Source: Eledone cirrhosa (taxonomy: Eukaryota). Taken from it: 64,000 bases of DNA. Position 1 is the stretch's first letter, and each line of letters starts with the position of its first letter. The stretch lies in contig CAXHJY010001474.1 in the NCBI GenBank assembly GCA_964016885.1, positions 1-64,000 on the forward strand. Direction: 5' to 3'. Below are positions 24,647-51,867 of the stretch, piece by piece. Position numbers and translations under genes: made by a program. The notes below the pieces were generated by a model. The model saw nothing but the letters and a program-made list of their open reading frames with translations. It searched no databases and was not told the origin of the DNA.

Positions 24647-24847
24647 AACGAAGGAAATGTGGTAAGGAACCAGGTGGACCATAACGCACCAAAGTACTCA
24701 ATACTTGAGGTAGTAGAGTGGGTAATAGGAACCAGTAAGACCCCGACAGCTGAGCTCAAGCCGTTTCGACGGCTAATTCTGGACTCAGTCCAGAATTAGC
24801 CGTCGAAACGGCTTGAGCTCAGCTGTCGGGGTCTTACTGGTTCCTAT
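24647..24847. mobile_element. Family B fold-back element in (TA)n
   Basis: Perfect palindrome 24725-24847 (61-bp arms, 1-nt loop); carries the GAAA-cggc..gctg-TC hammerhead 3' half; near-identical to 51683-51867. Confidence 0.85.
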
Positions 24848-24887
24848 ATATATATATATATATATATATATATATATATATATATAT

Positions 24888-25200
24888 ATTCAGGTTTGAG
24901 GTTCACCACTGTATAGAGCTGGTCTATTCCGTATGGTCAATCGTAATGCAATAATATAGAGAGTACTCAACGTAAAGCAGTTCACTCCAGGGCGACCGGC
25001 TGAGGTTGAAGGAACAGAATAGCGGTCGCCCTCGGGTCTCAATTTTCAACCCCATGGATTTTACCTATTACATTCACGTATTATATTTCGAATACCTGAT
25101 GATATCACCGGATTCATACGGAACCCGGTCATTGAAATGATCATAGTATAATAAACCTTTCAAGGATTTACACAAATCCAGCCTCCTGTCATTTCATTAT
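24888..25200. mobile_element. Family C element with inverted 3' end; HHR at 25092-25149 (+)
   Basis: atac-CTGATGA..ccgg..ccgg..GAAA-TGATCA-TA-gtat; 24888-24988 matches the reverse complement of 32355-32452. Confidence 0.75.
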
Positions 25201-25559
25201 ATATATATATATATATATATATATATATATATATATATATATATATATAACAGGAAGAGAAGACATCATTCATAGACTGAAGTAAAATAATATATATTTA
25301 CTCAGTATAATAAGCCGTATTGAGTACTTTGTAGATTAGCGTCTTTTAAGTTTTGTAACTCAATAAATATCTATATGTGTCATAAAGCGAATCGCACATA
25401 TAGTTATTATTTCATTAACTTTGCCTTTCATCCTTACGGGGTCGATAAAATAAAGTACCTGTAATGTAATTGCTGGCCTTGTGCTTAAAGTAGAAACAAT
25501 TATTTCATATCCAATTGAGTTCTTAGCACGTGGCTTGAATTCTTGTCAGAGTTCAACGC

Positions 25560-26010
25560 CATGCGCATGTATTGTTTTTGGCGGTAGCCTCCTTCCTCCC
25601 ATTTTCGGGACAGTATGAGATTTTCTTTAGAACTGCTGGACTAACAACCTAGCAGTCCCCTCAAGCAAGATATTGATATTTATTTGGTTATCAATATTAA
25701 TATTATTGGGTACCCACTGAAGATTTATAAGAGCCCACTTGTATAAGTATCTGTTGATCTTATACAAGCTTCTACATAACTTGGTATAATTTCACCCAAC
25801 TTGTAGAAATCTTACAAGGAAACGAATCGTCTGGGAAATGAGATATTTGATATATCTCATATGAAATAATACAATTTTCCACACAATACAATATAGTTAG
25901 CACCCCAAACGTTAAATTGGGAATATACTCAGGTATTTCCTAATGTTTGTTGTTGAGTGAGTTGGAATTTGGCCGGAGTATCGCTTTTAGCTTTCTCCGA
26001 TTATGTATTT
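25560..26010 (+). mobile_element. Family G element; branched-helix-II HHR at 25713-25835
   Basis: ccca-CTGAAGA-tttataaga..two hairpins..tcttacaag-GAAA-cgaatcg-TC-tggg; second copy at 56428-56900. Confidence 0.8.
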
Positions 26011-26189
26011 ATGTAGTTATATATATATAACTGTTTCTACTTTTGGCACAAGGCCAGCAATTATCCCAGTGTATTACTGGTACTTTATTTTATCGACCCC
26101 TTAAGGATGAAAGGCAAAGTTAACCTCGGCGGGTTTTGAACTGTCCGTAAAGGGACGTAACTGTGCTGCAAAGCATAACGGCGATGAAT

Positions 26190-26514
26190 TAGTTTTGCGA
26201 GGTTTTTGATATGAAATCGTGTGTCGAAACAAATATTGTTATACTTGGGGAGAGTCATGTTTGTGTAATAATATTGCCAGAATTAATAACAGAAGACACT
26301 CACTGTTTGGTTGGTTTTCGCTTCTGTGTCCTTTATATCGGTTAATTTAATTTATTCCGTCCTCAATGTAACCATTGACTGACCAACGGTCAAAAATACA
26401 GATACAATATAAACACAAACACATATATATAGTCTAACCAAACAGTGGGTGTGTTCTGTTATTTATTCTGGCAATATTATTACACAAATATGACCCTCTC
26501 CAAGTATAACAATA
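26190..26514. mobile_element. Family F fold-back fragment
   Basis: Reverse complement of the 12125-12375 tail followed by a forward copy of the same tail ending at aagtataacaata(TA)n. Confidence 0.75.
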
Positions 26515-48400: not shown

Positions 48401-50545
48401 ATGATGAGGAGCTCAGTAAGTACCAGTTACCCTTTCTACGGCGAAAGAAGGCTGGATTTGAACTCAGAACCGTCAGAGCCAGTACAAATATTACAAGTCA
48501 ACCCGCAAGGCGCTCTAACAATCCCACCAATTCATCGCCTGGGTTCGTACTTTATTTATCGACCCCGAAAAGCTAAAAGGTAAAATTGACGTCGTTGGTA
48601 TTTGACCTCAGAGCACAATAAGTTGTAACAAATACCTCATCAGGGGGAGATAATTGTTTGTACTAAGAACAATACAGAACTGAAATCAGACATTAAGTCT
48701 TAATTATCGATGTAATTATATCTTAAATATATAAAGATGACCCTTTAATTAGTTTTAATGAAGTAACGAGTTGTGGAGTGACCGTTAGATATAGGGTCCA
48801 GCTACGAAATCAATAAATAAGCTGACATAGCACAGCAAGAGGATGGGGCTGTTTAAGAGTGAAGAGGATTAGTGGAGCTACCCGTATCTCTTTAAAAGTG
48901 CTGCAATCTCTTTGGCGGGGTCCTGACCAAGGAAATGCAGACTGCCTTCTAAATAAATCCGAGCAAGGCAGAAAAAATCTGCCCTAAGTTGATAAGTAGC
49001 AGCATCAGCTGCGATGCCACAAATGATCTAAACGTGAGCAATGAATGACCCCTCCCCTTTACTAGTGTCCAAGAGCATCTTTCAATAAAACAATGGATTA
49101 CCTGAGAATACCTGAGAAGTGAGATATTTCCAACCTCTTCAGAAGAGGAAGAACATAATTGGATGAAAAGTAATAAATTCTATGTAGGTTATGAATAGAT
49201 AGATATATAGATATGAATATATTATTTATTAATATATAAATGACCCACAGTATATTGGGACACTAATGATTATTTAATAACCTCTGCACCAACACCAGAA
49301 GCGACACCAACACCAACACCAACAGCGACACCAACACCACCACCAACACCACCAACGCCACCAACGCCACCACCAACACCACCAACACCACCAACGCCAC
49401 CACCAACACCACTAACACCACCAATAACACCAACAACACCAACAGCGACACCAACACCACCACCAACACCACCAACACCACCAACGCCACCACCAACACC
49501 ACTAACACCACCAATAACACCAACAACACCAACAGCGACACCAACACCACCACCAACACCACCAACACCACCAACGCCACCACCAACACCACCAACGCCA
49601 CCACCAACACCACTAACACCACCAATAACACCAACAACACCAACAGCGACACCAACACCACCACCAACACCACCAACACCAACAATAACACCAACAACAT
49701 CACCAACAGTGATACCAACACCAACACCAACACCACCAACGCCACCACGAACACCACCAACACCACCAACGCCACCACGAACACCACCAACACCACCAAC
49801 GCCACCACCAACACCACCAACATCAACAATAACACCAACAACATCACCAACAGTGACACCAACACCAACACCAACACCACCACCAACACCACCACCACCA
49901 ACACCACCAACACCAACACCACCAACGCCACCACCAACACCACCATCACCACCACCACCAACACCAACACCACCAACACCACCAACACCACCAACACCAC
50001 CAACAACACCAACAACATCACCAACACCAATAACATCATCAACAGTGACACCAACACCACCAACAACACCATCATAACTAACACCAACACCACCACCACC
50101 ATCATAACTAACACCAACACCAACACCACCACCACCACCATCATAACTAACACCACCAACACCACCACCACCATCATAACTAACACCAACACCAACACCA
50201 CCACCATCATAACTAACACCACCACCACCACCACCACCATCATAACTAACACCAACACCAACACCACCACCACCACCACCATTACTAACACCAACACCAC
50301 CACCACCACCATCATTACTAACACCAACACCACCACCAACACCACCACCATCATTACTAACACCAACACCACCACCACCACCACCACCACCATTACTAAC
50401 ACCACCACCACCACCACCACCACCATCATAACTAACACCACCACCACCACCACCACCATCATAACTAACAACAACACCACCACCACCACCACCATCATAA
50501 CTAACACCACCACCACCACCACCATCATAACTAACAACAACACCA
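45432..50545. repeat. Cluster of (AGT)n, (TTGG)n and (ACC/AAC)n tracts with unique spacers
   Basis: Direct reading: 45432-46260, 47155-47873, 49285-50545. Confidence 0.9.
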
Positions 50546-51174
50546 GCTGCTCTCAAAGTGACTTACAATTGCTACTCAAGTCATATCAATGATTTAACAG
50601 AAATACCGAAATTACTGGTTTATTTTATATTATAAACCTTTCGTTTCGTCGACAGATTAAGTTGAAACAGGTTTCAAAAGTAACGGTTTAAATCTAATCC
50701 CTTCAGTTATAGCAATTAATTGGAAGTAGATTCTTTCTCTATAGAATTGTGACCAACTGTCAGACTGTGCCATAGACCTCTGCTTCGAGACACCTCAGGG
50801 CAAGGATTACCACAAACAAAGAATCGGAATATATGTCGTCCTGTCTTCCTAACAGCTGTCACTGTCTTATTTCTTTTTTCTCTTTTCTTTTTTACCTGAT
50901 GTCAGTAGATTTTAAAAGAATTGTAGTAATCAATGCCAAAGAAGGTGAATTAACAGAGTCGTTAGATGAATTGGCAGAGTAGTTAGAATGTCGGTTGACA
51001 TGCTTTGCAATATTTGTTTCAAATCTCTGCTCTCTGAGTTCAAATCCTGCCGGGGGGTCAGCTTTGACTTTCATTTATTTAAGGTCGATAAAAAAAGTAC
51101 CAGTCTAATACTGATGTTCATTCTCCCTCTATATCGGAGGTTCTCAAAATTTTGGGCCACCACCTCGCTCACAA

Positions 51175-51430
51175 AAGCAAGATGATGTAGGACAGAACAA
51201 AGGAGAGACAAAATAAGAATTCAGTCACTGAGGAGGTCACAGAATGTGTGAAGAAAGACGTTTGATAATATATAAACAACCATCCGGTTATTGAACCAAC
51301 CAACCGGAAATTTATAATAAATTGAAGTGAATACCGACAGGTGCGTGTGTTTTATTGGCAGCCTGACCCTCCCAAAGTATAACAATATCTGTTTCAACAC
51401 ACATTTTAAGATAAGAAATCTTACAAAACA
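51175..51430 (+). mobile_element. Family F-related element; decayed HHR at 51223-51266
   Basis: Homologous to 12404-12702; agtca-CTGAGGA-ggtcaca..tgtgaa-GAAA. Confidence 0.7.
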
Positions 51431-51479
51431 AATTCAAAAATAAAGTATATATATGTGTGTGAGAGAGAGAGAGAGAGTC

Positions 51480-51665
51480 TCGGGTTCAATCGGGGATAAC
51501 AACAGTAAGTAAGGTACTCAATACATAGCAGAGTGTAAACATCAAGTTTAATATAGAAATGACTTCTACAGGACTAGAACTGCTTCATTCCAAAGAAATC
51601 ATCAGACCTTCCTGATGATTTCCTTTAATGAAACAGTTCTAGTTCTGTAGAAGCCTTTTCTATAT
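51480..51665. mobile_element. Family D fold-back element with divergently oriented decayed HHRs
   Basis: cttc-CTGATGA..GAAA-cag..ctg-TA-gaag at 51608-51653 and an inverted copy at 51563-51605; homolog at 55875-56032. Confidence 0.7.
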
Positions 51666-51682
51666 ATATATATATATATATA

Positions 51683-51867
51683 TAACGAAGGAAATGTGGT
51701 AAGGAACCAGGTGGACCATAACGCACCAAAGTACTCAATACTTGAGGTAGTAGAGTGGGTAATAGGAACCAGTAAGACCCCGACAGCTGAGCTCAAGCCG
51801 TTTCGACGGCTAATTCTAGCCGTCGAAACGGCTTGAGCTCAGCTGTCGGGGGTCTTACTGGTTCCTA
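51683..51867. mobile_element. Family B fold-back element
   Basis: Same sequence as 24647-24847 with a different turn-around point (ggcta-attc-tagcc). Confidence 0.85.

Follow-up and report, generated by a model that had tools for sequence, protein, structure and literature searches.

We have found that the window, by which we mean the whole 64,000-nt stretch of Eledone cirrhosa DNA analysed here, carries seven fold-back insertions, in each of which a long arm runs to about position +138 of an element and an inverted short arm runs to +58 (Table 1). A sequence-only reading of this DNA had listed seven such copies with a common fixed 3' end; all seven exist, its start for the first (4303) being about 10 nt late (4293), and the position of the 3' end is fixed in all of them, two old copies representing diverged subfamilies. 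That reading also had the short arm almost always stopping at TTCC before (TA)n, which is true of five of the seven but not of the copy at 4293, where TTCC is followed by (TC)n, or of the copy at 27821, which is decayed there. As it had noted, only half a hammerhead is present, and 0/7 window copies carry CUGANGA. A single arm at 4574-4624, absent from the earlier list, is an eighth item.

Table 1. Fold-back copies and the single arm in the window (window coordinates; element positions carry a plus sign)
Feature	Positions	First arm	Junction	Second arm	Remarks
Copy 1	4293-4497	tailed, - strand, 4293-4429 (about +138 to +2)	13-18 nt insert	short, + strand, to TTCC + (TC)n	diverged subfamily
Single arm	4574-4624	+ strand, begins at +1	G before it		diverged; 71% identity
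Copy 2	24648-24844	tailed, - strand, 24648-24785 (+138 to +1)	non-parental C at 24786	short, 24787-24844 (+1 to +58)	young; (TA)n either side
Copy 3	27608-27776	short, - strand, 27608-27658 (+58 to +8)	5-nt insert	tailed, 27664-27776 (+25 to +138)	short arm extends more 5'
Copy 4	about 27821-27973	short, - strand, to about +3		long, from about +1, internal deletion (about +14 to +65)	old, diverged; ends by eye
Copy 5	31090-31257	short, - strand, 31090-31119 (+58 to +29)	blunt join	tailed, 31120-31257 (+2 to +138)	
Copy 6	44528-44673	tailed, - strand, 44528-44619 (+138 to about +47)		short, 44621-44673 (+5 to +58)	short arm mostly without template in long arm
Copy 7	51685-51865	tailed, - strand, 51685-51817 (+138 to +6)	arms overlap 1 nt	short, 51817-51865 (+11 to +58)	young

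A parent element with Penelope-like motifs

The family to which the fold-backs belong comprises tens of thousands of insertions, which are very short and head-to-head. A family 15-mer has 54,372 exact matches genome-wide against 0 for its reversed control, and the family is therefore not due to chance; most of its insertions are stubs of 130-200 bp, and they are flanked by (TA)n, a repeat that would hide any target-site duplication. The earlier suggestion that the fold-backs derive from Penelope-like elements (PLEs) was borne out, the copies being the pLTR end of an intact element that we call L172. This element has a unit of 3,118 bp and an intact 719-aa ORF starting at +232, with RT and C-terminal GIY-YIG (motifs YRDD and IYQC..YIG); a Pfam search with the ORF gave no match, and these identities come from the motifs and from by-eye likeness to published Hydra proteins.

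Judged by its motifs, L172 is an EN+ PLE of the Hydra clade. The ORF has RWR (K to R in RWK), SDKT (DKG to DKT), the CxCX5C linker CNCPDRSIC, a single C between IY and YIG, CNLC before EE and CKH after N, and CCHH is absent; the unit lies slightly above the clade norm of generally under 3 kb. We rejected the Neptune clade, which needs a CX2-5CxxC linker and CCHH whereas L172 has CxCX5C and no CCHH, and also a non-LTR retrozyme, which would consist of tandem non-coding repeats with a complete hammerhead in each whereas in the stubs the arms are inverted and the 5' core of the ribozyme is missing, and their parent is protein-coding. Hydra-1_Obim, as described by Craig et al. 2021 (PMC8557442), resembles L172 in its C-terminal GIY-YIG, RW(R), DKT and CxCX5C linker, in having no CCHH and in having CxxC and CxH around the catalytic E and N, in its (TA)n target and in a hammerhead in the pLTR region, and its RT motifs match by eye. 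By the same description L172 is nevertheless a different family, with a 3.1-kb unit as against 2,507 bp, and with a hammerhead of U3:A8 core, 30-plus-nt loop II and 6-bp helix III as against the compact CUGAAGA of Hydra-1_Obim.

Self-alignment of L172 reveals a pLTR from a partial tandem, an adjoining inverted 5'-truncated copy and a tail at one end, which is the EN+ PLE layout. As outlined in PMC8557442 and PMC3846280, that layout comprises an inverted 5'-truncated copy and a 30-40-bp tail at one end; the head-to-head inverted copy, the partial tandem pLTR and the single-end tail recur here, but the tail is 80 nt and most insertions are the short stubs. The outer ends of L172 form a tailed/tail-less pair, +58 and +138, identical to that of the stubs, and in another locus (L186) an ORF-containing cDNA likewise halts at +2/+3.

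Outer and inner ends

Young copies were sampled by position (99 long arms, a partner being an inverted arm within 60 nt); an inverted partner was present for 70 of the 99, and 64 of these 70 end at +58; a further 17 of the 99 are short tailed arms with no partner nearby. The outer ends are thus two fixed sites, +58 and +138, and the span between them is the known PLE 'tail', here of 80 nt. Both sites lie in the 5' UTR and TAT follows each. Among the TA and TAT sites within +1 to +145, 2/12 TA and 2/4 TAT hold nearly all ends, so the proposal that the second strand is primed at an internal TA microhomology stands as to the internal site but not as to TA being the sole selector.

The inner ends meet a wall at +1 (TTT|AGTCC). 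In the same sample long arms end at +1 to +8 in 53/99, at -60 to -5 in none and far upstream in 12, and short arms end at +1 to +8 in 50/70. Four of 99 long arms and seven of 70 short arms reach -1 to -4, and the start is therefore not unique. Breakpoints are thus far from uniform, and both inner ends do lie within 25 nt of GTCGAAAC, as had been proposed, in 64/70 copies, although they pile up at +1 to +8, 8-15 nt upstream of it. In run X1 the depth of contigs climbs about 10-fold at +1 and drops some 300-fold beyond +140, contigs being unable to show starts or expression, and the contigs had no strand-change joints listed. The +1 stop lies inside loop II, at a probable transcription start; we rejected helix II itself as the stop, since the ends lie beyond its 3' strand, within the loop. 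Long arms stop at +53 to +67 in 10/99, a cluster that collision with the first cDNA would explain but that does not exceed the neighbouring rate (17 over +9 to +41). By-eye inspection of +28 to +32 saw no DPE-like motif.

Genome-wide, 685 loci have symmetric +1 junctions, and we tallied the first 50 by eye. The insert is one base in 25, being C/G in 22 and A/T in 3; there is none in 9, CG in 2, C-W-G in 9 and another sequence in 5. The single inserted base is thus a non-parental C/G in 22/25 one-base cases, whereas at an internal control site, +7, one-base inserts are the templated T/A in 19/19 and C/G in 0/19 (Fisher p 2e-9). Where a single C is present it lies on the tailed cDNA in 11 cases and on the tail-less cDNA in 8, 3 being unassigned; at 11 of the 50 junctions there is an extra C on both arms. 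In full-length L1, according to PMC11702581, an extra G is the mark of cap copying. The presence of a non-parental C on either arm argues for a cap at the 5' end of the RNA and for two separate primings rather than for snap-back.

A second stop and a predicted hammerhead

Symmetric +42 junctions occur at 307 loci, and in the first 50 a single inserted base is A/T in 12 and C/G in 1 (p 2e-6 against +1), in a tally that omits +43 to +45 and in which a junction with no insert could equally be read as an overlap of CG. The stop at +42 coincides with the point where the ribozyme is predicted to cut; it shows no extra C and is common to both arms. In the parent element the hammerhead core is of the U3:A8 type (UUGANAA), a published variant (PMC4209133), and lies 43 nt upstream of +1. 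Among the first 100 of 6,195 arms the core is UUGANAA in 76, CUGANAA in 20 (a C3-A8 mismatch), UUGAAGA in 2, another sequence in 2 and CUGANGA in 0. In a test for a type I hammerhead the minimum-energy fold yields a three-way junction around the core, GAAA and NUH, and 95% of helix cells are paired across 18 copies, with two-sided covariation at 0 pairs and a fold z-score of only -0.64. Rfam gave no hammerhead among the window matches listed (150 of 567), which are of microRNA type, on microsatellite hairpins and all below the gathering score, and no matches for three further loci (L031-L033).

Longer copies had been expected to carry CUGANGA 5' of 'gacggctaatt'. A hammerhead 5' core is indeed present in them, in the form of UUGANAA at -43, and 'gacggctaatt' is not a neighbour of the hammerhead but part of the inverted arm. 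CTGANGA directly upstream of +1 has 3 genome matches, all at fold-back centres, and we discarded these as junction by-products. The +42 stop is an indirect and putative sign of hammerhead cutting in vivo.

Discussion

We propose, with a probability of roughly 0.78, that the stubs of this Hydra-clade PLE would be made by twin priming, in which two cDNAs run off the 5' end of the RNA and are joined head to head. [quoted passage not shown] The normal mRNA would begin, with its cap, at +1, driven by an initiator-like TYAGT within the pLTR. Both priming sites are so close to this cap (58 and 138 nt) that most events would give stubs, and read-through RNA with a downstream pLTR would yield longer and full-length copies. 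Only read-through RNA would contain the whole hammerhead, whose U3:A8 core would cut after +41 to give the rarer +42 stubs. The stretch common to both arms would be copied twice, and the second enzyme would have to displace the first cDNA. The junctions carry end-joining scars.

It is unlikely, in our judgement, that instead a single cDNA from +138 turns back at the RNA end or at a hairpin and copies itself to +58, with joining by TA microhomology and later deletion of centres. Such self-priming is the published reading of head-to-head palindromes in PLEs (PMC3846280, in its account of these structures), it predicts the symmetric +1 and +42 junctions and the concordance of the arms, and a stable hairpin is predicted at +12 to +27 for RNA beginning at +1. 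The long arm equals or exceeds the 5' reach of the short arm in 44/70 copies, which a fold-back could give likewise. However, of the 19 cases in which the extra C could be assigned, 8 place it on the tail-less arm, the 11 junctions mentioned above have it on both arms, and hairpin loops as short as 0-1 nt are improbable on steric grounds. The short arm extends further 5' in 26/70, by at least 10 nt in 11, and arms with little or no overlap occur in L039, L040, L058, L059 and the window copy at 44528 (+47 to +138 and +5 to +58), findings that run against the earlier idea of a snap-back at helix II. Full-length elements, too, have +58 as an outer end. We note that palindrome centres get lost, and part of the arm asymmetry could be later deletion.

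Twin priming might also use two separate RNA molecules brought by a protein dimer, which we consider quite unlikely. Strand displacement would then be unnecessary, the PAc protein is a predicted dimer (PMC11167929), and 1-4 of about 125 arm pairs differ at each subfamily site. Independent RNAs should, however, give about 20-fold more mixed +42/+1 junctions than double +42 junctions, and the reverse is found genome-wide, with 13 unambiguous mixed junctions against about 150 double +42. The +42 stop is common to both arms, and therefore a single RNA was likely copied twice. At each of four subfamily sites the two arms carry the same base in 97-99% of copies, where random pairing would give 59-83%, although this could reflect subfamilies active at different times; 10 rare variants are common to both arms and 74 are not, and those in common show no A-to-G excess (1/10). 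That the hairpin is itself a mobile unit, MITE-like or retrozyme-like and copied whole from fold-back masters, is hardly credible, for while at least 30 genome copies are identical to window copy 2 over a 143-nt query that includes the junction, they were chosen by that junction, a type found in 1/99 of an unselected sample with diverse junctions, an identical junction is found in three subfamilies, and the outer ends have no terminal inverted repeats and the stubs no ribozyme 5' core.

Twin priming on one RNA has partial precedents. In the in vitro work on Poseidon PAc of Anolis (Frangieh et al. 2024, PMC11167929), the protein cuts and extends both target strands and RT begins at two internal points of the RNA, which delimit the tail. 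Two internal start sites, cutting and extension of both strands and an AT-rich target are thus features in common, but the PAc starts lie within the ORF at sites without homology to the cut DNA, whereas ours lie in the 5' UTR before TAT. The account of integration in that report does not trace the inverted structure back to a pair of primings, and it gives no reads at the ribozyme cut. Our data favour twin priming on sense RNA, whereas the model outlined in PMC3846280 is self-priming on an antisense template.

In the twin priming model for L1, cDNA is primed from both target strands, with a variable second site and with cDNAs taken from different parts of the RNA, whereas in the present family neither site varies and one stretch of 58 nt is copied twice. 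LINE-1, as presented in PMC11702581, also has inverted junctions with end-joining scars and an extra G at full-length 5' ends. The Cercyon PLEs of Schistosoma, as described by Cervera and de la Pena 2014 (PMC4209133), have a type I hammerhead in the pLTR with a U3-A8 covariant core, a long helix II and a palindromic helix III region, and the present family differs in its full helix III and in a long loop II with a probable transcription start. A search of the open-access literature found, in the text it returned, neither single-RNA twin priming nor cap run-off for PLEs.

PMC8557442 lists the formation of the tandem and inverted structures of PLEs as a task still open, and the relevant part of PMC11167929 describes the steps that follow first-strand synthesis as unvalidated. 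We think it rather probable that double priming on a single RNA would be the default mode of PLE integration, with a fixed start for each target strand, a common stretch copied twice and joining by the host, so that one mechanism would account for the tail, for the inverted pLTR and for the great number of stubs, and the stubs would map the capped start and the U3:A8 cut to a single base. The family supplies thousands of natural products that separate models of PLE integration; both arms act as first-strand cDNAs that stop at a common RNA end, and the DNA may preserve readable traces of a cap and of a ribozyme cut. On this reading, hairpins of this kind would be by-products, and not MITEs, retrozymes or microRNA genes. 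Twin priming at two fixed points would explain the long-puzzling structure of the PLE class.

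Copies and parent element

We find all seven fold-back copies that the sequence-only reading claimed for the window. In each, a long arm meets a short, inverted arm of the same sequence head to head, and most lie within (TA)n. Family B is real, with 54,372 exact matches to its 15-mer in the 3.0-Gb genome (a two-armed copy scoring twice) versus 0 for a reversed control, and one young subfamily is marked by a 47-mer with 5,265 exact matches. Long copies among the 15-mer loci ran into coding sequence and led to the parent at locus L172, a complete unit wholly within (TA)n that comprises a tail-bearing inverted arm, a 5'-truncated copy, the pLTR, an ORF and a 3' UTR, and ends at the tail-less site. 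The ORF is intact (719 aa, RT and GIY-YIG). Its protein has the RWR, DKT and CxCX5C motifs and lacks CCHH, matching the Hydra-clade motif definitions of Craig et al.; a first assignment to the Neptune clade was dropped for Hydra after this motif check, and a Pfam search of the protein gave no match. Judged by sequence, family B is best classed as a novel family within an established clade (Hydra). Its layout is known: Penelope-like elements (PLEs) with a head-to-head inverted copy have already been described (PMC8557442, PMC3846280).

Sites on the parent element and other features of the window and related loci
Feature	Location	Strand	Remarks
Numbering origin, A of TTT|AGTCC (+1)	L172:4349
Short-arm end	+58		numbering on L172
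Long-arm end	+138		numbering on L172
ATG of ORF	+232		numbering on L172
396-aa open frame	L172:489-1676	-	LINE-type reverse transcriptase, adjoins parent element
Three-part insertion	L186:1789-2996
Endonuclease-end fragment	window:42229-42823	-	related Hydra-type PLE, broken, three frames, ~50% identity to L172 protein
Another repeat family	window:11807-12372, 26190-26515, 38832-39046, 51364-51455		inverted arrangements; GTCGAAAC at 12341 and 26223; perhaps a further family of PLE stubs
72-bp tandem array	window:33494-34471		13.6 copies, 97% matches; GTCGAAAC on - strand in each unit; possibly PLE-derived
175-bp arms	window:57006-57359		99% complementary, 4-nt centre, one end in (TA)n; not related to family B
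Further fold-backs	window:10705-10962, 31805-32061, 36780-37194
Compact canonical hammerhead-like cores	window:4153-4177, 57452-57476		CTGANNA...GAAAC, outside family B

Outer and inner ends of the arms

From 100 listed places of the 47-mer we recovered 99 tailed arms, of which 70 have an inverted partner at most 60 nt away, 12 extend far upstream and 17 are without a nearby partner. Partner arms end at +58 in 64 of 70 cases, a few bases later in four and elsewhere in two. When 56 arms were picked by their 5' part only, 31 ended at the first outer site and 20 at the second, one read through and four ended elsewhere, three of these being, by eye, diverged subfamilies that reach the first site. 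Each site is followed by TAT, yet arms seldom end at the two remaining TAT or the ten remaining TA sites. The stretch between the two end sites is the tail of PLEs, linked by Frangieh et al. to two internal RT start sites (PMC11167929). We note that runs X5 and X6 (organisms B and C) contain, at low depth, near-identical pLTR-region pieces that end in (TA)n at +138, and X5 also one low-depth fold-back contig.

The inner ends pile against a wall at +1. Rather than being uniformly distributed, which would have spoken against the junction regularity first proposed, they heap at +1 to +8 (53/99 long arms, 50/70 short arms), with few at -4 to -1 (4/99 and 7/70) and none at -60 to -5 among these arms. 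In run X1, which may be the assembly's own sample, summed contig depth rises ~10-fold at +1 and drops ~300-fold after +140. Of the 70 pairs, 18 have blunt junctions, 16 a 1-nt overlap, 7 a longer overlap and 29 an insert, a mix expected of end joining. The sequence-only reading proposed either that cDNA snaps back at the helix II hairpin or that the second target strand primes at an internal TA microhomology; the published interpretation of PLE head-to-head palindromes is self-priming, perhaps on an antisense template (PMC3846280). In 26 pairs it is the short arm that extends further 5', in 28 the long arm, and 16 are ties; since a strand folding back on itself cannot copy sequence that it lacks, the 26 pairs argue against fold-back of one strand, although a later deletion could have removed the template from the long arm.

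A putative capped start at +1 and a second stop at +42

Both arms reach +1 at 685 loci. Among the first 50, counted by eye, 22 carry one extra C/G and 3 one extra A/T, and inserts of CG (2) and C-W-G (9) place a C on each cDNA; the parent base at -1 is T. At control site +7 (first 50 of 1,171) all 19 single inserts are templated T/A, a different base composition (p = 2e-9). Fetching all 22 single-C loci placed the C on the tailed cDNA in 11 and on the tail-less cDNA in 8, with 3 unassigned. The TYAGT context at +1 is kept across subfamilies and resembles an initiator. In L186, a three-part insertion, the cDNA covering ORF sequence also ends at +2/+3, which assigns the wall to the coding mRNA. 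In full-length L1, an additional 5'-terminal G is described as a cap signature (PMC11702581), and D. virilis Penelope is reported to have an internal promoter with an Inr in the corresponding region (PMC2377424). We infer that +1 is probably a capped transcription start. In L186 a tailed cDNA runs to +2, the sequence then jumps into RT coding sequence and again continues to +2/+3, and the tail-less arm follows; this order suggests that the enzyme switched templates on reaching the 5' end of the RNA. Two loci, L056 and L062 (central match), have 15-20 nt of poly(T/A) at their junctions, immediately upstream of +1, which may stem from reiterative copying of UUU at -3 to -1.

The parent RNA is predicted to fold into a type I three-way junction with GAAA at +19 and a cut after +41. 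In the parent the hammerhead 5' core lies at -43; longer copies do have such a core, the absence of which would have counted against the first reading. Because +1 falls in loop II, an RNA starting there has the 3' half alone, which accounts for the half hammerhead first noticed in the copies; the CUGANGA core proposed with it was found in none of the first 100 of 6,195 arms (by eye), which have UUGANAA (76), CUGANAA (20), UUGAAGA (2) or other cores (2). Core position 7 varies freely, and U3-A8 is a known PLE hammerhead variant (PMC4209133). Counting against the hammerhead are a weak fold z-score and the lack of two-sided covariation across 18 copies. Among the first 50 of 307 loci with the second stop, both arms end at +42 with non-templated inserts in 25, without an insert, and hence ambiguously, in 14, and with C/G in 1, and 10 extend further. 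Single inserts here are A/T in 12 versus C/G in 1, unlike those at +1 (p = 2e-6) and as expected of an uncapped end. The stop coincides in position with the predicted ribozyme cut.

One RNA or two

Roughly 25-33% of the sampled arms end at +1/+2, whereas +42 is the end of 2/99 long and 2/70 short arms, in the same two copies. Were the two arms copied from independent RNAs, +42/+1 junctions should outnumber +42/+42 junctions ~20-fold. The mixed pattern has 93 genome matches, 13 of them unambiguous at +42 and 20 ambiguous by eye, and the 13 compare with ~150 unambiguous double +42 junctions (25/50 scaled to 307). At sites that distinguish subfamilies, the two arms carry the same base in 97-99% of cases versus 59-83% at random, in a set that takes in the junction-selected loci L001-L030; subfamilies active at different times could also account for this agreement. 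One RNA copied twice fits best, and such copying would need strand displacement. Within the texts consulted, our literature search found no account of single-RNA twin priming or cap run-off for PLEs; supplementary figures S1 and S2 of PMC11167929 may bear on insertion ends. The DNA evidence from family B is unusually sharp on the mechanism of PLE insertion.
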